Assembly (NCBI GenBank): GCA_044343885.1
Contig: JBIJDW010000002.1
Location: forward strand, 1-37,250
Origin: Kiritimatiellia bacterium
GTDB lineage: Bacteria > Verrucomicrobiota > Kiritimatiellia > RFP12 > JAAYNR01
Direction: 5' to 3'
DNA length: 37,250 bases
In this document: in pieces, positions 3,214-17,773 of the stretch
Layout: the number at the start of each line of letters is the position of its first letter
Position numbering within the stretch: position 1 is the first letter of the stretch
Notes under the pieces: generated by a model
Database searches by the model: none
Seen by the model: the letters and a program-made list of their open reading frames with translations, nothing else
Told to the model about the DNA's origin: nothing
Program-made: the position numbers and the translations under genes

Positions 3214-4296
3214 TTATGTCGCCGCCTGGAGCGCGCCGAGATCGGCTGAGGTGATGGCGGCGCGATTGCGCGTGATCTTGGCGGCGTCCCAGTTCCACCA
3301 GGCGAGATCCAGAAGCGCGGTGATGACTTCCTCGGTGAAGCGGGTGCGGATGAGCGTTGCGGGCACGCCGCCGACCACAGCGTACGGCGGCACATCCTGC
3401 GTGACGACCGCCCGCGCGGTGATGATGGCCCCGTCGCCGATACGCACACCCGGCATGATCACAGCCTGATAGCCGATCCACACGTCATTGCCGATGACCG
3501 TGTCGCCCTTAGGCGGGGGGGTATCCGCTCCGGAAGACGGCGCCTCCCATCCTTGGCCGAACAGACTGAACGGATAGGTGGAGAAACCGTCGGTTTTGTG
3601 AGTGGCGCCGTTCATGATGAAACGGACGCCGCTGGCGATGGCGGTGAAACGACCGATGATCAGTTTGTCTCCATTTTCAGGATAATGATACAGGACACGC
3701 CTTTCGAAGGGTTCGTGCCCTTCGCTGTCATCCGTATAGGTATAGTCGCCAACGATGATATTCGGGTTCTTGACGGTGTTGGCGATGTAGGTGAGACGCT
3801 TGTCGCCGGTGGGCAGGGGATGAATCTGACTCGGCGCGGGCCCGGTCGGCGCCGGGAGCTCGGGCATTTCCGGCGGATTGGGAATATCCGTCAGCGGAAT
3901 ATGCTTGTCAGCACACCACGCGACAATGGCTTCGCGCTCGGAGCGGGCGCGGTAGGCATGCCAAAAATCGAGCAATCCCGCGTCGACGGTCCACTGCCGG
4001 AAACGCCGATACGCGCCGCGCCGGCTGAAAAAGCTTCTGATCTGCTCATAATCATCCGGACGGAATTCTCGAACAAAACGCTCGACGAGTGCGCGGCCCA
4101 GATCCAGTTGCTTTTCCCCGGGAATGATGATGCAGGCTTCCCAGTTGACATCCGCGGGAATCAGGGCTTGATCCTCCTCTAACTCAGAACCCTTTAGGTA
4201 AATGGCGTTTCGTGAAGGGTCAAAATAGGCACTTCCCCGGCCAAAAGACAAATCGGAAAAAGAGATGGCGTCTTCAATTTCTTGATAATTGGGCAT
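3214..4296 (-). CDS. Fusion protein: UPF0158-like N-terminal domain plus Vat-type xenobiotic (streptogramin A) O-acetyltransferase, hexapeptide-repeat family
   Basis: The C-terminal ~215 aa are colinear with Vat/XAT enzymes: [101 protein letters not shown]. The N-terminal ~150 aa ([11 protein letters not shown]...LLDFWHAY...AIVAWC) resemble UPF0158. The ORF track starts at a GTG (4311). I prefer the ATG at 4296, which has AGGAG 7 nt upstream. Confidence 0.8.
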
Positions 4297-4399
4297 AGAC
4301 ATTCTCCTCACAACGGCTTACACGATGGCGAACATGACGTAAACCGTGGCAAACCAGGATCCGATTAAGCGAATCAAAATGCTGTCATGTGATTGGCGT

Positions 4400-5256: not shown

Positions 5257-8200
5257 TCACGCAGGATCGGTGACCGGTGTCTGATGAGCCATGAGCGAGT
5301 GTGGAACGAGGGTGTTGCTTTGGCGGATCGTGTCGAAGATGGCTTCGGCGAGGATTGGAAAGGCGGTGTTTTGGAACGCCGGGTCGTCCATGTAGCGGGT
5401 GACGATCCTGTCGTTTTCGCTGAGGCGTTGAATCATGAGTGATTCGATAAGCGGCTTGATGCCCAGCAGGAACTTGTCGAGCGGGTTCGCTATGGCCGTC
5501 TGGATCACCTGCTGGGTGGCTGACGCCTTCTCGCGGATCTGCTCGAAGAACAAGCGGTCTTCCTCGGTAAAACTCGTGCCAAAGCGGTCGTTGAGCACTT
5601 TGACGATCTCGGACAAGGGCGCTTTCTCCTCCTTGGCTTTTCCGGTGCCCACGTCCGTCGGGCTTTTCACGCCTTGCGGATCGCCTTCACGGATTTCGAT
5701 CTCGCCTGAGGAAATCCGCTGCAAGCGGTAGTACTGAAGCCCGACCTCGTCGCCGATCTTCACCCTTTCTGTATCGCGGTCGAGGGGGAGATGTGGCAGC
5801 AGATACCGCCCGAAGCTGTAGAGCATCTCCAGGTCGGGATCGCCATAAGAAATAATCTGGCTCATGAAGGAGTAGATGTTGACGTACCCGCTCAGCTTTT
5901 CGCGGAACTCACTACGCTTGGCCTCGTCATTCATCGCCTTGAATCGGTCGACCGCGGGCTGAAGGTGCAACTGCATGCCGGCATGATCCTGCGCGCTCTG
6001 GCGGGCTACGGGCTTGTAGAAGACGCGTGCGAACGCCTCGACCTCGCTCTGGTAGTAGACCTGCGCGGCATCGAGGTCATGCTTGAGCTTTTCCAACTGC
6101 TGCGGGTCTGAACCTTCCTGAAGGCTTGTCGCGTCGTAGTAGGGCTTGAAGGCTTTGTAGACGTCCTCGGCTTTGTTGACGAAATCCAAGATAAACGGGT
6201 TCTCCTTGCCGGGAATCTTACGGTTGAGCCGAGACAGGGTCTGCACCGCCTGTACGCCGTCGAGCCGCTTGTCCACATACATGGCGCAGAGCAGAGGCTG
6301 GTCGAAGCCCGTCTGGTATTTGTTGGCCACGAGCAACACCTGATAATCCGGCGAGGCGAACCGCTCCGGAATCTGCTTCTCGCTGATGGACTTACCGCTC
6401 ACGCAGTCGGTGTTCATACCCGGTTCGGTGAATTCCTCGCCCGGAAGCTTCGGATCTTTGACCGTGCCGCTGAAGGCGACCAGCGGGCGGATGTCGGTGA
6501 TCTTATTGTCGGCGAGGTAGCGCTCGAAAGCACGCATGTAGCGCACGGCGTGGAGACGGGAAGAGGTGACTACCATGGCTTTGGCCCGTCCGCCGAGCTG
6601 GCCCAACACTTTATGGCGGAAGTGCTCCACCATCACCTCAGTCTTCTGTTCAATATTGTGCGGGTGCAGACTCATGAATTTGGCCAGCGCTCTCGCCGCC
6701 TTTTTCTTCGGGAGGTTCGGATCATCCTCGATGGCCTTGACCAGTCGGTAATAGGTGGCATAGGTGGTATAGTTTTTTACTACATCAAGGATGAAGCCCT
6801 CGTCGATGGCCTGCCGCATGGAGTAGAGATGAAACGCCGCTGGCTTTCCATCGTCACCCGTGCGGCCGAACAGCTCCAGCGTCTTGCCCTTAGGGGTGGC
6901 GGTGAAGGCGAAAAAGCTCAGGTTCGGCTGCCGCCCGCGCGACTGCATGACCTGGTTCAGGCGGTCTTCCCAGTCCGGATCTTCCTCGACGTTCTCCGCG
7001 TTTGCGGTTGTGCCGAGAATGGACTTCAGCTCGCGCGCCGTCTCGCCGGTCTGACTGGAGTGCGCCTCGTCGACGATGACAGCATACCTGCGCTTGGCGA
7101 TTTCGGCCTCCCATTTCGCGGCGTCGGCCTTCTGCTCGGCGGTCGCCGCCTCCTGACTCTCCGCGCCGGCGGCGTGGAGCAGGCCGCGCAGGACAAACGG
7201 AAACTTCTGCAGGGTCGTGATGACGATCTTAGTGCCGTCGATCAGCGCGGCGGCGAGCTGCTTGGAGTCCTGATCGATGGCTTTGACCACGCCCTGCGCG
7301 TGTTCAATCTGGTAAATCGCGTCCTGTAACTGCCGGTCAAGCACCTGGCGGTCGGTGATGACCACCACGCAGTCGAAGACCTTGGCGTCCTGCTCGTCGT
7401 GCAGGCTGGCGAGCCGGTGCGAGAGCCAGGAGATGCTGTTGGTCTTGCCGCTGCCGGCCGAGTGCTGAATGAGGTAGTTGCGTCCGGGACCTTCCTCGCG
7501 GGACGCCAAAACCAGTTTGCGGACCGAGTCGAGCTGGTGGTATCGAGGGAAGATCATCGTCTCTTTTGTCACGACGCGCTGCCCGCCGCGGCCGTCGTCC
7601 ACCTTCTCATCCTTCTTCTCGATAAACATGAAGTGGCCGAGGATGTCGAGGAAGCTCTCGAACTGGAGCACATCCTCCCAGAAATAGCCGGTGCGGTATC
7701 CGGAGTCGTGCTGCGGGTTGCCGGAGCCACAGATGATCTTGCCGGGGTTGCTGCCACGGTTGAACGGCAGGAAATGGGTCTTCTCGCCAGCCAGACGGGT
7801 GGCCATGTGGACCTCTTCTGAATCGGCGGCGAAATGCACCAGCGCCCGCTTCTTGAACTCGAAAAGCGGCGCGCGGGGGTCGCGGTCCTGCCTGAACTGG
7901 CGCACGGCGTGGCGCCAGTTCTGGCCCGTGCCGGGATTCTTCAGCTCGATGGTGGCGACAGGCAGGCCGTTCACCGCGAGCGCCATGTCCAGCGTGCGGT
8001 TGTCGGCGGGATGGCAGGGCACCTGCCGGGTGACGGTGAGGCGGTTTTTGCTGAAGAGGGCGATGGTATCGAAATTCGCGCCGTGGGCGGGTTTGAAGTA
8101 GGCGACGCGGAAGAGCTTGCCGTAAAACTTGAAGCCGTGCCGCAGCACGTGGAGCGCGCCCTTGGCGTCCAGTTCCTTGACCAGAGTGGTCAGCAGCAAC

Positions 8201-8403
8201 GCCTCCAGCCCGGCCGCGTGCAGCGTCCGCATCTCGGCCCAGAGCTTGGGCTGGGTGTCAGCAATAAACGCGAATACCTGCGCCGGGAAAAGCGCCCGTT
8301 CCTTGTCCCACTCCGCGTTGCTGCCTGACTTCCAGCCGCCGTGCGTCAGCAGGATTTCCTCAACGTAGGTCTCAAAGGCGTGTTCGGTGGTTTGGGATGA
8401 CAT
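5257..8403 (-). CDS. hsdR: Type I restriction enzyme, R (endonuclease/translocase) subunit
   Basis: 1048-aa ORF. The N-terminal PD-(D/E)xK region is DMALAVNGLPVATIELKNP. SF2 motif I is LIQHSAGSGKTNS and motif II is VIVDEAHSSQ (DEAH). It has a long helical C-terminal domain and shares a locus with hsdM and hsdS. Confidence 0.9.
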   Translation of the reverse strand: MSSQTTEHAFETYVEEILLTHGGWKSGSNAEWDKERALFPAQVFAFIADTQPKLWAEMRTLHAAGLEALLLTTLVKELDAKGALHVLRHGFKFYGKLFRVAYFKPAHGANFDTIALFSKNRLTVTRQVPCHPADNRTLDMALAVNGLPVATIELKNPGTGQNWRHAVRQFRQDRDPRAPLFEFKKRALVHFAADSEEVHMATRLAGEKTHFLPFNRGSNPGKIICGSGNPQHDSGYRTGYFWEDVLQFESFLDILGHFMFIEKKDEKVDDGRGGQRVVTKETMIFPRYHQLDSVRKLVLASREEGPGRNYLIQHSAGSGKTNSISWLSHRLASLHDEQDAKVFDCVVVITDRQVLDRQLQDAIYQIEHAQGVVKAIDQDSKQLAAALIDGTKIVITTLQKFPFVLRGLLHAAGAESQEAATAEQKADAAKWEAEIAKRRYAVIVDEAHSSQTGETARELKSILGTTANAENVEEDPDWEDRLNQVMQSRGRQPNLSFFAFTATPKGKTLELFGRTGDDGKPAAFHLYSMRQAIDEGFILDVVKNYTTYATYYRLVKAIEDDPNLPKKKAARALAKFMSLHPHNIEQKTEVMVEHFRHKVLGQLGGRAKAMVVTSSRLHAVRYMRAFERYLADNKITDIRPLVAFSGTVKDPKLPGEEFTEPGMNTDCVSGKSISEKQIPERFASPDYQVLLVANKYQTGFDQPLLCAMYVDKRLDGVQAVQTLSRLNRKIPGKENPFILDFVNKAEDVYKAFKPYYDATSLQEGSDPQQLEKLKHDLDAAQVYYQSEVEAFARVFYKPVARQSAQDHAGMQLHLQPAVDRFKAMNDEAKRSEFREKLSGYVNIYSFMSQIISYGDPDLEMLYSFGRYLLPHLPLDRDTERVKIGDEVGLQYYRLQRISSGEIEIREGDPQGVKSPTDVGTGKAKEEKAPLSEIVKVLNDRFGTSFTEEDRLFFEQIREKASATQQVIQTAIANPLDKFLLGIKPLIESLMIQRLSENDRIVTRYMDDPAFQNTAFPILAEAIFDTIRQSNTLVPHSLMAHQTPVTDPA
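8227..8403. repeat. Direct repeat copy A (5' end of intact hsdR), paired with 10412-10591
   Basis: My hand alignment to 10412-10591 gives about 90 percent identity, roughly 15 mismatches plus one 3-nt indel. Both copies are in the same orientation. Confidence 0.85.
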
Positions 8404-8406
8404 GGT

Positions 8407-10272
8407 TCAGAGTAGGTGGTTATTTTGGAAGTTTTCGTTCAAAACGTAACCTCTGGCATCGGCACTTGGTCTCATTATCAACTCGCCCTTCTCCAGTTTG
8501 TTAAAGGCATATCGCACCTTACGGTAAAAGGCGTCAAATTCTTTGATGTCCTGTAAAGCACCCTTTTCCTCGAACCATAGAGAGAAAGCCGCTGTTTTTG
8601 CCGTGACCGCCTTGTTCTTAGAGTAATGCCCATGGCGGTAGAGAACGTTCAGGCATCTACGTGATAGAAGTTCGAGTGTGGTTAGCAGCGTATCTCCATA
8701 AAGCGCTTGAAGTTCTTCCCGATAACCGTCCTGCATGAGAATTCGGTCCGCCAAAAAGACAGAATGGACACTCGTGCTTCGGTTGTGTTTGAAGATCAGA
8801 CCTGCCCGCTCAAGCGACAACAGTTGCTCGAAATGATTGTTGTCTGGCGTGAGCATGATGGTGTAGAGGTGCGAACGATTAGCCCGTTCCGATTTGATCA
8901 AATAACTCAGAACGAATCGTTGTTCATCAGTAAGGGCTCCGCCCAACTTCTCCTCAATGTGCGCATCAAAACTTGCCAAATGATGTTTCATGCTGTCGCC
9001 GTAGAGAGGCCCCGCATTCACGAAGAGACAGACTTCGTCTGAGTAGAAGCGATAAGTCGGCAAATCGATCTTGTTTTCTAGGCAAAGATTGACCAGTGTG
9101 GCCATGCCGATGCCCTTGCCTTCCCACTTACGATACACGCGAAGCACATCGGCCAGTTTGGGATTGCGAGCTTTTGCCTCCGGTATGATTCGGCGCAGAG
9201 GAGCCGGATCGTCTGGAAAATCGATAAGCAGGTTCTTGCGGAAACAGCCGGGGTTCCGAATGGAGATATATCGGCCGGGCTTAATGGAAATAATCGCTTG
9301 TTTGTTAATCGAATAGTCGCGGTGAGCGAGCGCATTGTTGACGGTTTCCCGAAGCACTTCTTCAGGATATTGGGGTGTTTCAATACCCCCATCTTTCGCC
9401 GAAACGCCCACTTGGATGTTTCGCAGTATGTAGGTGAGACTGCTCTGCATGAGCGGCAGAATGTTGCCAATGTAGTCCTGCTTGTCCTGCGCAACAACCT
9501 GAGGGATATCTACGTACCCGTGGACATGGCACCGGAACCCCAGACGGTCTTCAGGATGACGTCCGCACACCAACAGGCCGAGCGTGGTCGCCTTTCCGTC
9601 CCTTACAAAGCACTTGCGCTCAAGAAAACTTCGGGCGGCTGGCAGATCGGCTTTTATGGTCTCAACTTTGGTCGGGCGGTTCAGTTGCTGGATGTAATCA
9701 TTGAGAGGATCGAGATCGAGATCATCCATCGTCGTATCATCGATCGTCTGGGTCTCGCGTGCATGAGACATCTCTTCGCGATATTCTTCCTGGCTTTCGA
9801 TTTCGGTGTCGCTTAGCTTGTGGTCGCCGGTCAATTGACGTTTCCACGCCTTACCCTCGTAAAAAACATACTTCTGGTCTGCGGGGAGTTCATCGACATA
9901 AATAACGGCTACCTGCCCTTGCTTGAAGGGGAGTATCTTCATTTGAGGAAATGACTCGCGGAGGTCGAGCGGATTGCCGACACGGTCCGTGAAGATGCGG
10001 GCAAACTCTTTCAGCTTCGCTTCGGCATCCTCACGCCAACCGCTGAAAATCCAACGCCGGTCAGGCCCCTGCCCCTCCTCTTTGAAACCGAGCAAAAGGA
10101 TGCCGCCACGCGTGTTTAAGAACGCATTCACGCTCTTGTACCGTTCTCGCCAAGACGCGCCGTCTCCTGGAACGGGCTTGATTTCAAGCGCGTCCGTTTC
10201 CAAAGGCTCGTATCGGGTCTCGGCTATCAGAACAGTCAAACGCGCCAGAATGTTGTCAACTGGGTCAGGCAT
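8407..10272 (-). CDS. AlbA_2/Schlafen-like plus HATPase_c_4 (RecG-like C-terminal) putative DNA-binding/ATP-binding protein
   Basis: 621-aa ORF. The N-terminal segment is typical of AlbA_2 (ETDALEIKPVP, NAFLNTRGGILLLGFKEEG, YEGKAWKRQ). The central motif VNNALAHRDYS is typical of HATPase_c_4. The C-terminus looks wHTH-like. The gene is visibly AT-richer than hsdR and ends 3 nt before the hsdR ATG. Confidence 0.65.
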   Translation of the reverse strand: MPDPVDNILARLTVLIAETRYEPLETDALEIKPVPGDGASWRERYKSVNAFLNTRGGILLLGFKEEGQGPDRRWIFSGWREDAEAKLKEFARIFTDRVGNPLDLRESFPQMKILPFKQGQVAVIYVDELPADQKYVFYEGKAWKRQLTGDHKLSDTEIESQEEYREEMSHARETQTIDDTTMDDLDLDPLNDYIQQLNRPTKVETIKADLPAARSFLERKCFVRDGKATTLGLLVCGRHPEDRLGFRCHVHGYVDIPQVVAQDKQDYIGNILPLMQSSLTYILRNIQVGVSAKDGGIETPQYPEEVLRETVNNALAHRDYSINKQAIISIKPGRYISIRNPGCFRKNLLIDFPDDPAPLRRIIPEAKARNPKLADVLRVYRKWEGKGIGMATLVNLCLENKIDLPTYRFYSDEVCLFVNAGPLYGDSMKHHLASFDAHIEEKLGGALTDEQRFVLSYLIKSERANRSHLYTIMLTPDNNHFEQLLSLERAGLIFKHNRSTSVHSVFLADRILMQDGYREELQALYGDTLLTTLELLSRRCLNVLYRHGHYSKNKAVTAKTAAFSLWFEEKGALQDIKEFDAFYRKVRYAFNKLEKGELIMRPSADARGYVLNENFQNNHLL

Positions 10273-10285
10273 TGGCCTATTGCTC

Positions 10286-10591
10286 CTACAGTGCTGCAGT
10301 GACGTTAATCTTGCCCGTAACGGCTGCGGTAATCAAGGCTATTCGGTCTTCCTGCAACCGCTCCACCGCCTCCTTCCCCACCAGCGCGGCCAGCTTGTGG
10401 CCATGCTGGCCCCGCATTTCGGTCCAGATCTTCGGCTGGGTGTCAGCAATAAACGCGAACACCTGCGCCGGGAAGAGCGCCCGTTCCTTGTCCCAATCCG
10501 CGTTGCTGCCTGACTTCCAGCCGCCGCGCGTCAGCAGGATTTCCTCAACGTAGGTTTCGAAGTCGTCTTCGGTGGTTTGGCTGTAACTCAT
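10286..10591 (-). pseudogene. Chimeric remnant: hsdR 5' fragment fused in frame to an hsdS 3' fragment
   Basis: The first ~58 aa (MSYSQTTEDDFETYVEEILLTRGGWKSGSNADWDKERALFPAQVFAFIADTQPKIWTEMR) parallel the hsdR N-terminus (MSSQTTEHAFETYVEEILLTHGGWKSGSNAEWDKERALFPAQVFAFIADTQPKLWAEMR). The last ~35 aa (LAALVGKEAVERLQEDRIALITAAVTGKINV) parallel the hsdS C-terminus (LDALVGKVEEAVERLQEYRTALITAAVTGKIDV). At 101 aa it cannot function as either subunit. Confidence 0.8.
10412..10591. repeat. Direct repeat copy B (hsdR-5'-like), paired with 8227-8403
   Basis: See copy A. Together the two copies bracket the AlbA_2-like gene and the hsdS-like fragment. Confidence 0.85.
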
Positions 10592-11334
10592 GGCACGGTA
10601 CCTAACAATTGCTGGACAACCTGCCGAATCGCGAAGCAGTATTCAGGAAGCCAGCCGTTCTCGGCCGTCGATGTCCTTGCCACGATCCGCTCGGCGTCGG
10701 CCCGGTTCTCAATACCTTCTATGAACGCGGTGATGGCCTGTGCCCGCCACCCTGTCAAGACCTCATGTCCGAGGTTTAGAACGGCGACTGTATCAACAGC
10801 GGCTTGATCGCTAGCAGTGGCAGGACTGATGCCCCCGCTGAGATCAAAAGCGAAGCGATTCTCGCAATTCTTGTCCGTGGGGAGGATTGGCACAGCGTCA
10901 TTTCCACGGTACGCCGCGCCAAACAGGGAGTTTTTCGTGACCCTTTTCCCGGCCCCGCTGACGAGCAAAGCCGCCACGATGTTCCGGTGATCCAAGTCTT
11001 CGCCCACATCCACACTGTATATCTTCCCTGCCGCTTCCATCTCTTGTCTGCACACAGACTGCGGTTTCAAGTGCTCATTGTGGGCGGAGAACTTCAGCTT
11101 GGCCTGCGGGTCACTCAGCGTGCCAAGACGTGAATCAATACCAGCCCCCGTGTAGGCACAAAGACCGCATTGTTCCGCTGTCAGTTCATTGCAGAGTTGC
11201 CTCCCACGGCTGCCGCCATGCGGACTGGCTGTGGAGGCGAAGGTCTTGTAGTCGAAACCATGGCCAACGTCTGCCTGTGCCGCCATGTAATCGCGTATGG
11301 AAGGCGGCGGCTCTGATTTTGCAGTCCATCTCAT
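10588..11334 (-). CDS. PtuB-like HNH-family protein (TIGR02646-like), partner of the upstream ATPase
   Basis: 248-aa ORF. It has a CxxC knuckle (QCGLCAYTG) followed by HNEHLKPQS, an (D/E)H-x-x-P HNH core. A downstream Asn lies in HRNIVAAL. I could not find the second Cys pair usual in HNH zinc fingers. ATGA overlaps occur with the ATPase stop (11331-11334) and with the remnant start (10588-10591). Confidence 0.4.
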   Translation of the reverse strand: MRWTAKSEPPPSIRDYMAAQADVGHGFDYKTFASTASPHGGSRGRQLCNELTAEQCGLCAYTGAGIDSRLGTLSDPQAKLKFSAHNEHLKPQSVCRQEMEAAGKIYSVDVGEDLDHRNIVAALLVSGAGKRVTKNSLFGAAYRGNDAVPILPTDKNCENRFAFDLSGGISPATASDQAAVDTVAVLNLGHEVLTGWRAQAITAFIEGIENRADAERIVARTSTAENGWLPEYCFAIRQVVQQLLGTVP

Positions 11335-12644
11335 TTGCCGAGCACCTTGATTCGTTCAACCATGGACACCGCCCGCTGAAGTTCATCGCTATTCCCGATT
11401 TCTCCGCGCAACAGGTGTGTCTCACATTCGGCCTCCGCAAGGTTGCGATCGTTAATCAGTTGAAATATTTTAGCCAACCGAGCCTTAACCTGCGCATTGC
11501 ACTTACTTCCACCCATCAGCACTTCCACCACCCAGTTAGAGTCCATGCCGAACGACAACGCGGGTTGAGAGAACACATTGTTGTGCATCATACGGATTTC
11601 ATCCGGCTGGAGTTCGCCGATCAACTGAGGCGAGTGCGAGGTGCAAACAAACTGAATGGCTGGGAATGTGCCCTTCAAATCCGTTGCGATCCGGCGTTGC
11701 CAGATCGGATGGAGATGCACATCCACCTCATCGATCAGCACCAAGCCCGGCGTCAGTTTCAGCACTCGCGGCACTGGATCATCCTCCGCGCCCAACTCAT
11801 CCGGCGGCAGCAGATAGGCATTCTGTGTCACTGCCTTGATGGCCAGGTCCGCGATCAGTGCCAGCATCATCCTCTGCCCGGCGCTCAGATTGTCAAACGG
11901 CTGTGCGTTGCCGCAGATTGACAGGACAATTTGGTCACGGTCTGTGTCGAACCACACGTCATCCGCATCCGGCACGCAGCGGAGCACGGCCCGCCGCACG
12001 ACCTCGAATCCCGGACGCCACTTTCCGCCCCGGTTCCCGCGCTCGGTCGTTTCACGGCTGAACCATTTGTGCAGCTCGGTAAAACGAATGCGTTCGTTGA
12101 AGCAATCGTAGAATGCCGCCCAGCGCATGGCTGGACTATTAGCCTTTGACTTGGGCACCCGCTCGTTGGAGGGCAGCCATGCCCGCCCGGCTCCGTAATA
12201 GGCTAGCACGGGGCAGAGCACATTTTCACCGGCACTGTCCTTTGCATATACCCCTTTGATGATCTGCCGAGCATCCTCGGCATCAGCGTTGGTCGTGTTT
12301 CTCTGATCCGCGCGAATCTGTCGCGTCCAGACAACCTGATCCCTCTCGGCAATGCGCCCGGTCGCCTGGACGATCACGGGACGCCGTTCCTGAAACTGGA
12401 TCCGGTCGCCCTTGGTTAGCGGCTCAAGCCGAATATCGGCAGGGAAAATTTTGCGTCCGCTATTAATCAGGATCGAGTCGGGCGGATCCAATAGCCAGAC
12501 ACCCGCGGCCACCGCCAGCGCATCGAGCACCGTCGTTTTGCCCGCGCCATTCTCGCCGACCAACAAAGTGAATTGCGGGTGCAGGTCAATATCCTGAGCC
12601 GCGAACTTCTTGAAGTTCGCAATGTGTAGGTTATCAAGTCTCAT
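11331..12644 (-). CDS. PtuA-like ABC/SMC-type ATPase (AAA_15/AAA_21 class)
   Basis: The N-terminus is MRLDNLHIANFKKF. It carries Walker A LLVGENGAGKTT, the ABC signature LSAGQRMMLAL, Walker B LVLIDEVDVHLHP and H-loop TSHSP. I prefer the ATG at 12644, which has AAGGAG at 12651-12656, over the TTG at 12683 used by the ORF track. Confidence 0.6.
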   Translation of the reverse strand: MRLDNLHIANFKKFAAQDIDLHPQFTLLVGENGAGKTTVLDALAVAAGVWLLDPPDSILINSGRKIFPADIRLEPLTKGDRIQFQERRPVIVQATGRIAERDQVVWTRQIRADQRNTTNADAEDARQIIKGVYAKDSAGENVLCPVLAYYGAGRAWLPSNERVPKSKANSPAMRWAAFYDCFNERIRFTELHKWFSRETTERGNRGGKWRPGFEVVRRAVLRCVPDADDVWFDTDRDQIVLSICGNAQPFDNLSAGQRMMLALIADLAIKAVTQNAYLLPPDELGAEDDPVPRVLKLTPGLVLIDEVDVHLHPIWQRRIATDLKGTFPAIQFVCTSHSPQLIGELQPDEIRMMHNNVFSQPALSFGMDSNWVVEVLMGGSKCNAQVKARLAKIFQLINDRNLAEAECETHLLRGEIGNSDELQRAVSMVERIKVLGK

Positions 12645-12655
12645 TAAAGGCTCCT

Positions 12656-14071
12656 TTACATCAAGTGTGCCAGTGTATCGCAAGACGATCCACCGTACAC
12701 GTCAATTTTGCCGGTGACGGCGGCGGTGATGAGGGCGGTGCGGTATTCCTGCAACCGCTCCACCGCCTCCTCTACCTTTCCCACCAGCGCGTCCAGCTTC
12801 GCCGTCTCCTTGTCCAGATACGCGGCGATAGCGGCTTGTTCGGGGAGGGGTGGAAGACCGATTTTGATCGAGCCGACGGTATCGGTGTTCAGGTTTAGTT
12901 GAGTTCCCATCTTGCCAAGCCCCTTGTAGGGTTCGCCGCTGGCGAAGATGTAAAACAAAAACTTCGTGTCTTCCTTCCAGCTTGGAAAATAGACGAACCC
13001 GTCGTGGATGCAGCACTTGATTGTAGTGATGCATGGTTTGCCGACGGTGCCTGCGATGCTTAGAAAAAGCGCACCGGGCTTGAGTTTCACGCTCAAGGAG
13101 CTTCCGAGAGGCGACATTCGCTGTTCCGTTTTCTCCAAGAACGGCCCCGCAGCCGTCACATCTGCGATTCTGACCCAAGCATACTTGCCTTCGTCATCGA
13201 AGAACTTCTCATCGTCGATTGGCCGAGGAGATGCACCACGCTTCACGGGTGACTCCCACTTGATGGCTTTAACCTCCCAATGCTTCGGGATGTCGCCGAG
13301 CCAGTCGATGCCGGAGGGTTTGAGGGGTGGGTTGGCGGGGAGCCCCGCCTTCGCGGCAGCTTCGGCGGGCAGGCCCCGAGTCACGGTTCGCGAAATCAGC
13401 GCGGTGCGCTTCTCCTTCAACCGCTCGATCAACTCGCGCTTCTTCGCCACCAACCGATCCACCCGCCCCGTCTCCCGGTCCAGAAACGCCGCGATGGCGC
13501 GTTGCTCGGCTGGGTCTGGTAGTGGAATCCACGCATCACCGATGGAGGCTTTTGGCAGGCCGTAGCGCGTGACGCCACTGGCAGCGACTTGGAACTGCTG
13601 ATTGACGGCGCATGACTGAAACGCCCGGAGCAAGTAATCGCCGATGAGCGCTTTCGGTCGGGAGCGAATGATGGCGAGATGGTAACCACACACCAAGTCG
13701 GGCGCGGTCTTTTTCACCATCGAGGGAACGGCAATGTCGCTCCATTCTTCGGAGTCTTTGGTTATGACGACATCGCCTACTCGCAGGCCGAATCGTCGGA
13801 TTTCATCCGCAGTGGCAGTCGTTTCCATCAACCCCATGTCAGGCGTGATGTGGTCGTGGTAGTAAACGTCGGTGTAGTTGCAGAGCCGCACCGGCAGTTC
13901 ATCCTCGGCAGGAACTTTGTCCACGTTGCTCACCCAACAGGTCGCAGACGTTTTCAGCCGTTTTACCTCCCAATGCTCCGGCACGTCGCCGAGCCATTCG
14001 ACGCCGCTGGGTTTGGTGCGCGGGTAGGCCGGGATTTTCATGGCTGCATGGTTCCTTGCGTCGGGCGGCAT
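12656..14071 (-). CDS. hsdS: Type I restriction-modification specificity subunit
   Basis: 471-aa ORF with two target-recognition halves. Each half is followed by the conserved HsdS helical repeat: EQRAIAAFLDRETGRVDRLVAKKRELIERLKEKRTALISRTVTRGL and EQAAIAAYLDKETAKLDALVGKVEEAVERLQEYRTALITAAVTGKIDV. An alternative ATG start at 14041 has AAGGAA upstream. Confidence 0.9.
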   Translation of the reverse strand: MPPDARNHAAMKIPAYPRTKPSGVEWLGDVPEHWEVKRLKTSATCWVSNVDKVPAEDELPVRLCNYTDVYYHDHITPDMGLMETTATADEIRRFGLRVGDVVITKDSEEWSDIAVPSMVKKTAPDLVCGYHLAIIRSRPKALIGDYLLRAFQSCAVNQQFQVAASGVTRYGLPKASIGDAWIPLPDPAEQRAIAAFLDRETGRVDRLVAKKRELIERLKEKRTALISRTVTRGLPAEAAAKAGLPANPPLKPSGIDWLGDIPKHWEVKAIKWESPVKRGASPRPIDDEKFFDDEGKYAWVRIADVTAAGPFLEKTEQRMSPLGSSLSVKLKPGALFLSIAGTVGKPCITTIKCCIHDGFVYFPSWKEDTKFLFYIFASGEPYKGLGKMGTQLNLNTDTVGSIKIGLPPLPEQAAIAAYLDKETAKLDALVGKVEEAVERLQEYRTALITAAVTGKIDVYGGSSCDTLAHLM

Positions 14072-14137
14072 GTGGAATGCCGGAAGCGTTTAAGACAGTC
14101 ACGGAACCGTTGAAGTTCGCTTGGCGCGTGGGCGGGT

Positions 14138-14416
14138 TCAGAGGCCGCCGTTCTGACGCAATAGTGTTTCATACTCCGCTCGTGACAGTGGACAGTCCAC
14201 CAAATCCAAGAATTGCTTTTTGGTCAGCTTCGCTTGCTTAGACATCAGGGCCAGCAGGCTGTCATCCAAATCCTTGCCGGAGTGGCTGGTTTTTGTCTTG
14301 GCGGTCGATTTCTTTCCATCGGTGTCGTGATAAATGAAATAGGTGTGGTCGCCATCGCGTTTTTGAAACCCCTTGGCCAACAATCCGGATTCGACGTCTT
14401 TACGGGCACGCGACAT
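14138..14416 (-). CDS. Small protein (~92 aa), weakly HicA-like, with a C-terminal extension
   Basis: The ATG at 14416 lies 1 nt after the stop of the 356-aa ORF (TGAtATG). The ORF track's longer form starts at a TTG. GLLAKGFQKRDGDHTYFIY ... TSHSGKDLDDSLLALMSKQAKL is reminiscent of the HicA/YcfA pattern (GF..v...GSHh ... h..kdl..gtl..ilkqagl). The family assignment is tentative. Confidence 0.35.
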   Translation of the reverse strand: MSRARKDVESGLLAKGFQKRDGDHTYFIYHDTDGKKSTAKTKTSHSGKDLDDSLLALMSKQAKLTKKQFLDLVDCPLSRAEYETLLRQNGGL

Positions 14417-14417
14417 A

Positions 14418-15488
14418 TCAACACCCTTCCTGTATGGCCGCACGAAGGTTTTGTTTGATGTCGAGAGCGGCAGGTGACAACGTCTCATCTGCGGCCATTG
14501 CAAATTCTTCCCAAAGAACGGCGATTTGCTCCTGCAGTTCCATTAGGAGGCGTTCCCGCGTGGCTGCAAACACATCGATGCCAAGCCGGTCATTCTGAAG
14601 GCAAAGATATTGGTTGGTTTCGTCTAGGACGGGGGCAAGGGACAACGGAGATACGAACTTCAATATCCGCCCAGCGGATGAAAACTCATGCGTGACAAAT
14701 GGAGAGAGATCCACATCCCTGATTTCCTGAACGTCTGCGATTTCCTTGGGAAGGCCGTTATCGTCTAAAATGACCGACCCTGTGACTTGGATCATATCGC
14801 GTCGGTTCTCGTAAAGCATTTGCTCTATGCACTCATCCGCATACGAGCATTCGAGAATCTTGTTCGTGACGGGGTGAATAATACTGAGTTGGTGTCGGAC
14901 AAAATTGATCTCGTTTAACCGTCCCGTTACCGTCATGGTCAAGGCTGTCGGCTCAGGTGAACAATGCTGACGGATTTCGCTTAGAAAAGGTGAAGTGGTC
15001 TGGTCAAACTCGCCGACCACATCCGATTGGTGACGGGTTTGCAGTTTCCAGTCATCGCCGGGCTTGGGAACCATGCCCCGAAACGCCTCCGCCACGCGGC
15101 TGCGCAGTTGCCGGTCAGGTAGCAATTGACGGAACGTGTCACGGTCTCGTCGGGCCAGCATGCCACTGCATCTTCGAAATAATGACGCGGTCTCGACGAT
15201 CCGTTCGTCCATCATCAACTGTCCGTTTTCTAGCTCACCAAGCGTAGCGGGCAAAGAGTAACTTCCAGATTTAGGCAACTGACAATGAAGCGCGTATTTC
15301 TGCTCGATATCGGAGGGGATTCGCGCCCGTTCACGAACTTCATGCCCTTCAACCTTCAATGCCAGTAGATGGATAACGTTCTGGGCGCTCGCAAGTATGC
15401 CCGCTAGAACAGAGGCTGGCACGGAATGAACTTCCGGTTCAGGCCACACGATGCGAAATTCGAACTCTTCTGTTTGAGTAGGGCTCAT
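14418..15488 (-). CDS. Hypothetical protein, 356 aa, no recognisable catalytic motif
   Basis: Long ATG-initiated ORF, co-oriented and wedged between hsdM and hsdS. The region is AT-richer than its flanks. I found no Walker A, HNH, PD-ExK or TM segment. Only the C-terminal ~60 aa (LGIDVFAATRERLLMELQEQIAVLWEEFA) loosely recall a HicB/UPF0150-type fold. Confidence 0.55.
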   Translation of the reverse strand: MSPTQTEEFEFRIVWPEPEVHSVPASVLAGILASAQNVIHLLALKVEGHEVRERARIPSDIEQKYALHCQLPKSGSYSLPATLGELENGQLMMDERIVETASLFRRCSGMLARRDRDTFRQLLPDRQLRSRVAEAFRGMVPKPGDDWKLQTRHQSDVVGEFDQTTSPFLSEIRQHCSPEPTALTMTVTGRLNEINFVRHQLSIIHPVTNKILECSYADECIEQMLYENRRDMIQVTGSVILDDNGLPKEIADVQEIRDVDLSPFVTHEFSSAGRILKFVSPLSLAPVLDETNQYLCLQNDRLGIDVFAATRERLLMELQEQIAVLWEEFAMAADETLSPAALDIKQNLRAAIQEGC

Positions 15489-15581
15489 GCTGCACGCTCA
15501 TTAAAAAAAGTAACCCGCCGATTTGAGCAGTGCCGGGATTTTGTCACCCCAACCTGATGCTTGGCGGGTATTGTTAAAACC

Positions 15582-15610
15582 AGTATGCTCGATTGAGGCT
15601 GAGCCGTCAA
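15582..15610 (-). promoter_or_regulatory. Candidate internal sigma-70-type promoter (TTGACG-N17-CATACT) for the 356-aa cassette
   Basis: On the reverse strand, TTGACG (15610-15605) is followed by a 17-nt spacer and CATACT (15587-15582). It sits in the 152-nt gap after the hsdM stop, about 94 nt upstream of the ATG at 15488. Confidence 0.25.
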
Positions 15611-15640
15611 CCGGAAAAAAAAGATAACTGGGCGGTGGAA

Positions 15641-17773
15641 TCACGCCGTGACCTCTTTGAGCATTTTCATGATCTCGCCTTCGAGGCGCTTGATGTCGGT
15701 CTCGATGACCTCCAGCGGGCGCGGCGGCTCGTAGCGGTAGAAGTGACGGTTGAGCGGGATTTCGTAGCCGACCTTGGTCTTGGCGGTGTCGATCCATGCG
15801 TCGGGCACATGGGGCAGCACTTCGCGTTTGAAGTAGGCATCGATGCTTTCCTTAAGCGGCACGGTCTCCGTGTCGCGCAGGTCGGCGTCCGGTTCGGGCT
15901 GGCCTTCGCGGTCGCGGCAGATTTCGGCGGTCTCGTCGCGCTCGCCGAGGGCGGCGAGCACGGCCTTGAGTTCCGGGGCGCTGAGGCGCACGTCGCTCTT
16001 CTTGCTGGCGGCCTTGAGGCTGGCGAGAAAGGCCTTGCGGTCACGATACAGCTTGGCAGCAGACATGGGCGGGACGCCCATGCCACTTTGCAGGAACGCC
16101 TTGATTTGCTCCTGACGCTGCCGGCCAGCCTCTATTTCATGTTGGCGGGCGGCGATGTCTTTCTTCGCGCTGATGGCTAGGTTTTTGAAGCCGCTCTCAT
16201 CGTCGAGCCGGGCGAGGCGTTCGGCGCTGGCCTGGAAGTTCAACCGCAGCGGGCGCTCGACGGTGATCTTGTGGTAGCCGAAGTCTTCGTTGTGGAAAAT
16301 CTTGCTGACGACGCGCTGGCGCTCAACGGGCTGGTGGGTGACGGGGTCTTCTTCGGTGAAGGTGCGAGTCTGACCGTCGCGGAATTCGCCGAATATTTTA
16401 GTGAGTTCGCCGATATGGTCGGGGTCTTTCTCCTTGTCGGAGGGGTCGCCGATACGGCGGCGCTTGTTGCCGAGGCTTTTCTCCATCTGCACCCAGAACG
16501 GGCGGGCGTCGATGAGTTGCACCTTGGCTTTACGGGCCTTTTCCTTTCGGTTGGTGAGCACCCAGAGGTAGGTGGAAATACCGGTATTGTAGAAGAGCTG
16601 CTCGGGTAGGGCGACGATGGCCTCCAGCCAGTCATTCTCAATGATCCACTGGCGAATGCTGCTCTCGCCGCCGCCGGCGTCTCCGGTGAAGAGGGGCGAG
16701 CCGTTGAAGACGATGGCGAGGCGGCTGCCGCCGTCCTGCGGGGCACGCATCTTCGAGAGCATGTGCTGGAGGAAGAGGAGCGCGCCGTCATTCACGCGGG
16801 GCGTGCCCGCGCCGAAGCGTCCACTAAAGCCGAGGGTGTCGCGCTCGCTCTCGATGTAGCGTTGTTGCTGTTTCCACTCCACGCCGAAGGGCGGATTGGC
16901 GAGCATGTAGTCGAAGGTGCATTTCTTGCCGTCAGCGGTGCGGTCGAAGCCGTCCTTGGTGAAGGTGTCGTCTCTGATAATGTTGTCCGCGTCCTCGCCC
17001 TTGATGAGCATGTCGGATTTGCAGACGGCCCAAGCCTCGTCGTTCCAGTCCTGGCCGAAGAGCTTGGGCTGGGCGTCGGCATTGAGCTTGCGGATATACT
17101 GTTCGGCGACGGACAACATGCCGCCCGTGCCGCAGGCGGGGTCGTAAATGGTTTTGACGACGTGGCTGCGGGCGAGGTCTTTCTCAGGAGCGAGGAGGAG
17201 GTTGACCATGAGTTTGATCACCTCGCGTGGAGTGAAGTGCTCCCCGGCTTCCTCGTTGGATTGTTCCGCACCGATCCGAATGAGTTCTTCGAAGACGTAG
17301 CCCATCTGGACGTTGTCCACGCGGCCGGGCGCGAGGTCGACTGCGGCGAACTTCTTGATGACCAGATAGAGCAGGTCTTTCTCGGCCATTTTGGCGATCT
17401 GCGTGCCGAAGTCGAACCGCTCCATGATGGCGCGAACATTGGGAGAGAAGCCGTTGATGTAGCTGTTGAGGTTCGGCGCGAGCTGGTTGGGGTCGTCGAG
17501 CAGGCGCGGGATGTCGAACTTTGAGAGGTTGTAGAACGGATGGCCGGTGATCGAGCAAAGCTTGTGGCGGATGATGTTCTCAGGCTTGGCCTTGATGGCA
17601 GCGTGCTCTTTCAGAACGGAGGCCTTGGTGGGGGCGAGGACGCAGTCGAAACGGCGCAGAACGGTGAGGGGGAGGATGACCTTGCGGTATTCGTTGCGCT
17701 TGTAGGGGCCGCGCAGGAGATTGCAGATGCTCCAGATGAAGGAGGCGATTTGAGAATGAGTTTCCGTTGGCAT
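15641..17773 (-). CDS. hsdM: Type I restriction-modification N6-adenine DNA methyltransferase subunit (long form, 710 aa)
   Basis: The N-terminus is HsdM_N-like (IASFIWSICNLLRGPYKRNEY). AdoMet motif I is YDPACGTGGML and catalytic motif IV is MLANPPFGVEW. A ~230-aa C-terminal extension follows the methylase core. Confidence 0.92.
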   Translation of the reverse strand: MPTETHSQIASFIWSICNLLRGPYKRNEYRKVILPLTVLRRFDCVLAPTKASVLKEHAAIKAKPENIIRHKLCSITGHPFYNLSKFDIPRLLDDPNQLAPNLNSYINGFSPNVRAIMERFDFGTQIAKMAEKDLLYLVIKKFAAVDLAPGRVDNVQMGYVFEELIRIGAEQSNEEAGEHFTPREVIKLMVNLLLAPEKDLARSHVVKTIYDPACGTGGMLSVAEQYIRKLNADAQPKLFGQDWNDEAWAVCKSDMLIKGEDADNIIRDDTFTKDGFDRTADGKKCTFDYMLANPPFGVEWKQQQRYIESERDTLGFSGRFGAGTPRVNDGALLFLQHMLSKMRAPQDGGSRLAIVFNGSPLFTGDAGGGESSIRQWIIENDWLEAIVALPEQLFYNTGISTYLWVLTNRKEKARKAKVQLIDARPFWVQMEKSLGNKRRRIGDPSDKEKDPDHIGELTKIFGEFRDGQTRTFTEEDPVTHQPVERQRVVSKIFHNEDFGYHKITVERPLRLNFQASAERLARLDDESGFKNLAISAKKDIAARQHEIEAGRQRQEQIKAFLQSGMGVPPMSAAKLYRDRKAFLASLKAASKKSDVRLSAPELKAVLAALGERDETAEICRDREGQPEPDADLRDTETVPLKESIDAYFKREVLPHVPDAWIDTAKTKVGYEIPLNRHFYRYEPPRPLEVIETDIKRLEGEIMKMLKEVTA

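Follow-up and report, generated by a model that had tools for sequence, protein, structure and literature searches.

A probable Class 8 hicBA toxin-antitoxin module separating hsdM from hsdS in a type I restriction-modification locus of a Kiritimatiellia bacterium

The window, a stretch of 37,250 nucleotides from a Kiritimatiellia bacterium (GenBank assembly GCA_044343885.1, contig JBIJDW010000002.1, positions 1 to 37,250), carries a type I restriction-modification (R-M) locus with a two-gene cassette between hsdM and hsdS. An earlier note, made from the sequence alone, had placed hsdM and hsdS about 1.57 kb apart with two co-oriented open reading frames (ORFs) between them. The coordinates are exact: the gap is 1,569 bp and is filled by two co-oriented genes, whose products have 356 and 92 amino acids (aa). 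The TGAtATG junction and the peptide stretches that the note quoted are likewise present in the sequence. We propose that the cassette represents a type II toxin-antitoxin (TA) module of the Class 8 hicBA kind, in the classification of Gerdes (mBio 2024;15:e03293-23, PMC10865869), and that it was horizontally inserted into the type I R-M operon, a reading that we consider probable. The cassette and its flanks comprise the following features:

14418-15488, minus strand: hicB-like large gene, 356 aa, recognized as an ORF with full-length homology to Class 8 HicB
14138-14416, minus strand: hicA-like small gene, 92 aa, with its ATG at 14416, recognized as an ORF with a HicA profile match and Class 8 homology
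14414-14420, minus strand: TGAtATG stop/start junction (stop at 14420-14418, start at 14416-14414), reading ...GGGTGT TGA t ATG TCG...
15489-15640, minus strand: hsdM-hicB spacer, 152 bp, AT-rich (49% GC)
15641-17773, minus strand: hsdM, 710 aa (Pfam N6_Mtase, 1e-55; HsdM_N, 1.5e-23), the upstream flank of the cassette
12656-14071, minus strand: hsdS, 471 aa (Pfam Methylase_S, 3e-16), the downstream flank of the cassette

The assignment to Class 8 comes from a survey that sorted HicA contexts into 14 classes, purely computationally (PMC10865869). In this class hicB precedes hicA, neither protein has a DNA-binding domain, and the HicB protein (331-376 aa) consists of a segment without similarity to other proteins (aa 1-171), a lysyl-tRNA-synthetase-like or oligonucleotide/oligosaccharide-binding (OB) segment (aa 175-253) and a HicB fold (aa 255-342). 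The Class 8 HicA has about 95 aa with two extra C-terminal helices, and one representative (WP_004069339.1) was modeled in the same study (PMC10865869). We compared the two window proteins by BLASTP with Class 8 sequences taken from its Table S1. The 356-aa protein was 28% identical over its full length to the HicB of Thermincola ferriacetica (KNZ68689.1; E 1e-44), and the 92-aa protein was 49% identical to the HicA partner (KNZ68690.1; E 8e-29). Because both proteins are homologous to a listed pair, we identify the cassette as a Class 8 hicBA module. Furthermore, the domains of the AlphaFold2 model of the large protein (aa 1-180, 183-258 and 262-356) match the published boundaries. The homology also bears out the suggestion of a HicAB-like module that is atypical in its reversed gene order and its enlarged partner. 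The alternative offered with it, a wholly uncharacterized pair, gave way to a family assignment but stands to the extent that the class has been catalogued by computer only. Like other Class 8 pairs (e.g., KNZ68689.1/KNZ68690.1 and WP_004069337.1/WP_004069339.1), the cassette has a closely spaced hicB-then-hicA order, a three-domain HicB and a HicA of about 95 aa with an extension. Its architecture is no different from theirs, except that the window copy has a 1-nt spacer rather than an overlap. The window pair is a further instance of an already catalogued architecture and not a new kind of system. The following elements were delimited within the two proteins:

14949-15488, minus strand: HicB N-domain (aa 1-180), alpha/beta, with no detectable similarity to other proteins; the most variable part of the family
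14715-14942, minus strand: HicB middle domain (aa 183-258), a five-stranded barrel resembling an OB fold, in which a helix separates strands 3 and 4; the best-conserved part
14421-14705, minus strand: HicB C-domain (aa 262-356), a beta-sheet plus a long helix in a HicB-like (partial RNase H-like) fold; presumed to neutralize HicA
14345-14347, minus strand: His24 codon of hicA, the presumed catalytic histidine, aligned by hhalign with the histidine of the 'GSNHLKL' motif of E. coli HicA

The HicA-like character that the earlier note had suspected for the small protein is supported by profile and alignment. The 92-aa protein matches the Pfam HicA_toxin family (PF07927) across profile positions 2-58 of 58 (E 3e-4, below the cut-off) and the PHROGs 'toxin' family phrog_353 (E 4e-4). 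A word-index search retrieved 61 relatives, a few of which are annotated as HicA or carry PF07927; at E ≤ 0.01, this profile matched 17 of 31 homologues, the best at 2.4e-6. The hhalign alignment with E. coli K-12 HicA runs end to end and pairs His45 of the window protein with the histidine of the E. coli 'PRH' motif. His24 is invariant across the 31 aligned homologues, as is a TKTSH motif (aa 41-45). The core of the double-stranded RNA-binding domain (dsRBD) type (aa ~5-64) is followed by a conserved 28-aa C-terminal extension (aa 65-92) with the conserved residues F69, L72, D74, C75, P76 and Y82, three of them (F69, L72 and C75) invariant. These alignments show the 92-aa protein to be a predicted member of the HicA family that has kept the catalytic histidine and carries a family-specific extension at its C-terminus.

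The 356-aa protein has no match in Pfam, NCBIfam, PADLOC or PHROGs, and its AlphaFold2 model (built on a 20-sequence alignment; mean predicted local distance difference test score, pLDDT, 86; predicted template modeling score, pTM, 0.50) resolves three domains. The middle domain is composed of the elements E183-195, E200-204, E211-215, H220-227, E232-241 and E247-258 and carries the conserved motif TVTGRL...C.Y...E...ENRRD.IQVTG. In Foldseek searches of the PDB it retrieved OB folds only, among them SilF, IF1, Stn1/Ten1, RPA, CspA and the anticodon-binding domains of aspartyl- and lysyl-tRNA synthetases (best E 7e-3, probability up to 1.0). The Foldseek search with the whole model saw the OB domain only, so the C-domain was remodeled alone (pLDDT 95.7, pTM 0.84). 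Its best PDB match was 2yzt, a 67-aa protein from Thermus thermophilus that we take to be a UPF0150 protein (probability 0.96, root-mean-square deviation 2.2 Å, 36% identity over 45 columns, E 0.57), followed by 3k6q (E 1.2), whose PDB entry describes an antitoxin from a putative TA system. The proposal of the earlier note that the last ~60 aa of the large protein are HicB-like is supported by the homology to Class 8, whose C-domain has a published HicB fold, and its own fold matches are to 2yzt and 3k6q with weak E values. Profile searches of PDB chains returned nothing with the whole HicB family and chance-level matches only (MtrB and VPA0419) with the C-domain, and hhalign of the family against the single E. 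coli HicB sequence was uninformative, with no detectable similarity. Solved HicB proteins hardly detect each other by sequence (E. coli versus Y. pestis, E 0.14). Separately, the C-domain matches in BFVD, along all of its 95 residues, an uncharacterized 155-aa protein of Siphoviridae sp. ctNZc11 (A0A8S5TBZ2; E 8e-6, TMq 0.84), which could be a phage-encoded HicB-like anti-toxin.

The three domains differ in how strongly they are conserved among 156 full-length HicB representatives. The OB domain has the highest mean consensus fraction (0.53) and a median identity to the window protein of 41%, followed by the C-domain (0.46 and 37%) and the N-domain (0.355 and 25%). The 356-aa protein has no DNA-binding Pfam match, and its AlphaFold2 model contains no helix-turn-helix (HTH) or ribbon-helix-helix (RHH) element. 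For this reason, we did not file the pair with the canonical HicAB systems (Classes 3 and 4). Neither protein matched a curated defense model of PADLOC-DB v2.0.0 at E ≤ 0.1, a check proposed in the earlier note. The window pair shares with canonical HicAB (E. coli K-12 HicA/HicB, PDB 6hpb; Y. pestis HicA3B3, 4p78) the dsRBD-type HicA core with an aligned catalytic histidine and a partner with a HicB-like beta-sheet-plus-helix domain that presumably neutralizes HicA. In contrast to the canonical systems, it has the reverse gene order, a partner that is 2.5 times larger and a HicB-like domain at the C-terminus rather than the N-terminus. Furthermore, its HicB has no HTH or RHH, which would preclude classical autorepression, its HicA has the 28-aa C-terminal extension, and the sequence similarity of its HicB to E. 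coli HicB is undetectable.

Relatives of the pair are numerous and widespread. The word-index search found 21 relatives of the 356-aa protein, and a hidden Markov model search of 1.84 billion cluster representatives (50% identity) retrieved 2,065 with E ≤ 1e-3, of which 350 reached E ≤ 1e-30; nearly all have lengths of 345-370 aa. We regard both ORFs as real genes because of these many relatives (2,065 of uniform length for the large protein and 61 for the small one). The family is spread over Proteobacteria, Verrucomicrobiota, Firmicutes, Bacteroidota and Gemmatimonadota. We examined four metagenomic or metagenome-assembled-genome contexts and 31 loci from GTDB species representatives, together covering Beta- and Gammaproteobacteria, Verrucomicrobiota and Longimicrobium, and added three loci reached from distant HicA homologues. 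The small gene followed the large one on the same strand in 36 of the 36 other loci with the 3' end on the contig, which answers in the affirmative the question of co-occurrence raised in the earlier note. The junction in these loci is mostly an overlap of 8, 11 or 14 nt, to which the +1 spacing of the window is an exception. In 3 of the 36 (L037, L039 and L041), what is left of the large gene is frameshifted or truncated. Two of the three distant HicA homologues are preceded by a partner of 350 or 354 aa, and the third (L041) by a 101-aa remnant that matches the final ~131 aa of the full-size HicB. Gene order and junctions show the two genes to be obligately paired and, as predicted from the spacing, translationally coupled across phyla. 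The retention in L041 of a HicB C-terminal remnant with an intact hicA fits the C-domain as the neutralizing part. At this locus (positions 3598-4300 of ENA ERZ25039533 contig_21068), part of the OB domain and the C-domain remain upstream of the intact Class 8 hicA, and the pair adjoins an MNT/HepT pair and a type I-U CRISPR-Cas locus (GSU0053/GSU0054/Cas3).

R-M genes are the most frequent neighbors of the pair. In a census of 130 proteins encoded up to three genes to each side at 28 loci (raw counts), the commonest Pfam families were ResIII (7), Methylase_S (7), N6_Mtase (6) and DEAD (6), followed by SWI2_SNF2 (5), HsdM_N (5), SocA_Panacea (4) and HSDR_N (4). A type I operon encloses the pair in at least eight divergent loci (the window, L005, L025, L029, L030, L031, L032 and L040). 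It sits between hsdM and hsdS in the window and, where both flanks are on the contig, between the S and R genes in the other seven. hsdR often starts within the hicA stop or about 20 nt from it (e.g., L005 and L030). The hsd genes of the other embedded loci are only ~40% identical to those of the window, and in the HicB neighbor-joining tree the embedded cases are found on several deep branches, which indicates that the type I association is recurrent and not one inherited arrangement. Recurrent type I embedding was not described for Class 8 by Gerdes, and the position between hsdM and hsdS likewise sets the window pair apart from the class as presented there.

The embedding raises the possibility that the pair is coupled to the type I enzyme, much as the anticodon nuclease PrrC is in EcoprrI (PMC12707154). 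The N-domain or OB domain of HicB would monitor HsdMSR, or its inhibition by phage anti-restriction proteins, and the HicA RNase would be released only when restriction is disabled. The eight or more divergent operons with their tight packing, the spread of embedded loci over several deep HicB branches, the PrrC precedent and the resemblance of the OB domain, among other OB folds, to the anticodon-binding domains of lysyl- and aspartyl-tRNA synthetases all speak for such a coupling. However, many members have no R-M gene nearby (e.g., L001, L042 and L009, between housekeeping genes), and the position in the operon varies (between M and S in the window, between S and R elsewhere). Moreover, the OB matches are generic, with IF1, CspA, RPA and SilF scoring equal to or above the tRNA synthetases, and physical contact with Hsd proteins is without evidence. 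The parallel with PrrC, in type Ic EcoprrI, is that of an RNase effector gene within a type I hsd operon, conceivably a back-up when restriction fails. Yet PrrC, an ABC-ATPase-like nuclease, is not homologous to either protein, and it has no separate antitoxin, being masked by the R-M enzyme itself; many Class 8 pairs, in contrast, occur without R-M. On balance we consider the coupling unlikely. We hold as similarly improbable the bolder conjecture that Class 8 HicBA is a dedicated type I companion whose N-domain and OB fold would sense anti-restriction activity or phage or tRNA-like nucleic acid and unleash HicA when DNA-level defense is bypassed.

Copies outside type I operons reside in integrase/AlpA/primase islands with SocA_Panacea pairs and type III R-M, beside ParE, or among housekeeping genes. 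Islands of Competibacteraceae/Contendobacter (positions 8001-10397 of L003; also L020, L021, L024 and L028) carry an integrase, AlpA and a PriCT_2/DUF3987 primase. In these islands, hicBA is followed directly by a SocA_Panacea antitoxin-type gene with a 146-aa partner and then by type III R-M and hsdM.

The base composition of the cassette (GC 0.521) is lower than that of hsdM (0.611), hsdS (0.588) and the whole window (0.607), which agrees with the AT-richness described in the earlier note and is in keeping with horizontal insertion. The promoter-like TTGACG-N17-CATACT that the note had assigned to the cassette does exist (15610-15582, minus strand), but one such site in the 2-kb region compares with 1.2 expected in shuffled sequence and is, therefore, no evidence of a promoter. 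The hsdM-hicB spacer also contains a weak terminator-like hairpin (15530-15515), and the count of terminator-like structures is not above the shuffled expectation. We considered two co-linear direct repeats flanking the cassette as insertion scars: an exact copy of GCCGGGATTTT at 14028-14038 and 15532-15542, and GCTTGGCG[C/G]GT at 14119-14129 and 15559-15569. We rejected them as probably due to chance, as one exact 11-mer repeat is expected ~0.4 times in 1.8 kb; the alignment of the two intergenic regions around the cassette revealed no similarity beyond these short repeats.

The hsd genes, the cassette and two further cargo elements, a Septu system and an AlbA_2 gene, all lie on the minus strand and together make up a single long type I R-M locus. 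Downstream of hsdS, it contains the following genes:

11331-12683, minus strand: PtuA (Septu), 450 aa (PADLOC PtuA, 4e-108; NCBIfam PtuA)
10588-11334, minus strand: PtuB (Septu), 248 aa (PADLOC PtuB, 5e-33; NCBIfam PtuB)
10286-10591, minus strand: chimeric ORF, 101 aa
8407-10272, minus strand: AlbA_2/HATPase_c_4 protein gene, 621 aa
5257-8403, minus strand: hsdR, 1,048 aa (HSDR_N, SWI2_SNF2, ResIII, T1R_D3-like), the distal end of the type I locus

The complete Septu system (10588-12683, minus strand) directly follows hsdS, whose 3' end is overlapped by the PtuA ORF, and is itself embedded in the type I locus. The 101-aa ORF is 75% identical at aa 4-79 to the N-terminus of the downstream hsdR product (aa 3-78) and 82% identical at aa 66-97 to the C-terminus of the hsdS product (aa 425-458). 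From its sequence it looks like a recombination scar, which suggests a mosaic locus derived from two type I loci with different cargo (Septu and the AlbA_2 gene). The gene for the AlbA_2 (Schlafen-like) and HATPase_c_4 protein has 51% GC and ends 4 nt ahead of hsdR. Its product is weakly similar in PADLOC to pAgo-associated and SIR2-PNTD proteins (E values from 6e-9 to 4e-6) and may be a third embedded defense candidate. Pfam covers only aa 9-431 of HsdM, leaving ~280 C-terminal aa without a family match; the HsdM relatives of related loci have 654 aa and are ~40% identical along the whole length. The 12.5-kb composite defense locus (5257-17773) is flanked by housekeeping-type genes, with inositol monophosphatase and Rnf genes to the left and BatD/VWA genes of 62-70% GC to the right, consistent with an island in a high-GC chromosome.

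Such varied cargo is also what would be expected if the pair were a selfish addiction module, kept because its loss kills the cell, with R-M loci serving as mere insertion hot spots and with no anti-phage role. Type I loci collect varied embedded cargo (10.1101/2024.01.29.577857), as Septu and the AlbA_2 gene do here; TA modules are clustered both with one another and with mobile elements, as the ParE, SocA_Panacea and HepT/MNT neighbors illustrate; and the low GC suggests recent acquisition. However, addiction by itself leaves unexplained a conserved three-domain, 350-aa antitoxin with an OB domain that is the most conserved part across phyla, when HicB proteins of 60-100 aa suffice for neutralization in other classes (PMC10865869). 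We view pure addiction as possible, yet rather doubtful. A parallel for a two-gene cargo interrupting a type I operon is TgvAB, together with other cassettes embedded in type I R-M, BREX and Hma loci (PMC11411939; 10.1101/2024.01.29.577857). TgvAB is, however, a GmrSD-like type IV restriction system acting on DNA, whereas the window cassette would be of the RNase-type TA kind. The main text of Payne et al. 2024 (10.1101/2024.01.29.577857) does not mention HicA.

Several observations weigh against a horizontally inserted Class 8 TA module. The R-M association consists of raw counts without a background-corrected statistic, and about half of the loci are on short contigs or have housekeeping neighbors. 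No relatives were found in IMG/VR (pattern scan) or among GenBank phages, and the single plasmid relative is on a Geminocystis plasmid, so mobility is inferred from the islands only. Gerdes 2024 reports no experiment on any Class 8 member, and we found no later paper. The assignment of the C-domain to the HicB fold rests on Foldseek matches with non-significant E values (0.57 and 1.2), and 16 C-domains matched no HicB-type Pfam family at E ≤ 10. The window HicA scores 21.2 bits against PF07927, under the Pfam gathering threshold of 27 bits, and the HicA family profile reached no HicA chain in the PDB, only chance-level matches (V-ATPase F and MecI). The last two results, along with the family-specific C-terminal helices and 'TKTSH' motif and the nucleic-acid-binding fold of the partner, would suit a HicA-like dsRBD protein that is a non-toxic RNA-binding subunit and forms, with the OB protein, a regulatory or processing complex that binds RNA or single-stranded DNA. 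But the catalytic histidine is invariant and the HicA profile is covered at full length. Furthermore, the overlapping, antitoxin-first gene order is typical of type II TA, and the neighbors are defense genes and mobile elements rather than genes of RNA metabolism. Hence, we regard a non-toxic complex as very improbable.

In the established HicAB systems of E. coli, Y. pestis and B. pseudomallei, HicA acts as an RNase that does not depend on the ribosome, and its release brings translation to a halt. By analogy, the HicA of the window would be an RNase toxin, and the C-terminal HicB-fold domain of its partner would bind HicA and occlude the active site. Both proteins lack a DNA-binding domain. 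Expression is probably set by the host operon, via read-through from hsdM or a weak local promoter, rather than by classical autorepression. More speculatively, single-stranded nucleic acid would probably be bound by the conserved OB domain, and the N-domain, which evolves fast, would be the likeliest trigger or sensor surface. Some trigger, for instance a phage product or the loss of HicB, could then free HicA and lead to abortive infection or growth arrest. The module would in this way add a second, RNA-level layer to the DNA-level defenses provided by the type I and Septu systems and also stabilize the island. Taken together, our analysis favors as the likeliest function an accessory role in abortive infection or addiction, with the HicA RNase toxin restrained by the C-domain of HicB.

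None of these findings upsets current understanding. The window provides a well-delimited example of a catalogued TA class with ~2,000 family clusters, and that the class is found repeatedly within type I operons offers a modest new lead, one that fits the idea of 'guilt-by-embedding'. Nesting in type I loci makes Class 8 a reasonable candidate for the 'embedded' defense genes. Furthermore, the replacement of the DNA-binding domain by an OB fold and a fast-evolving domain leads one to ask how the module is regulated and what triggers it.

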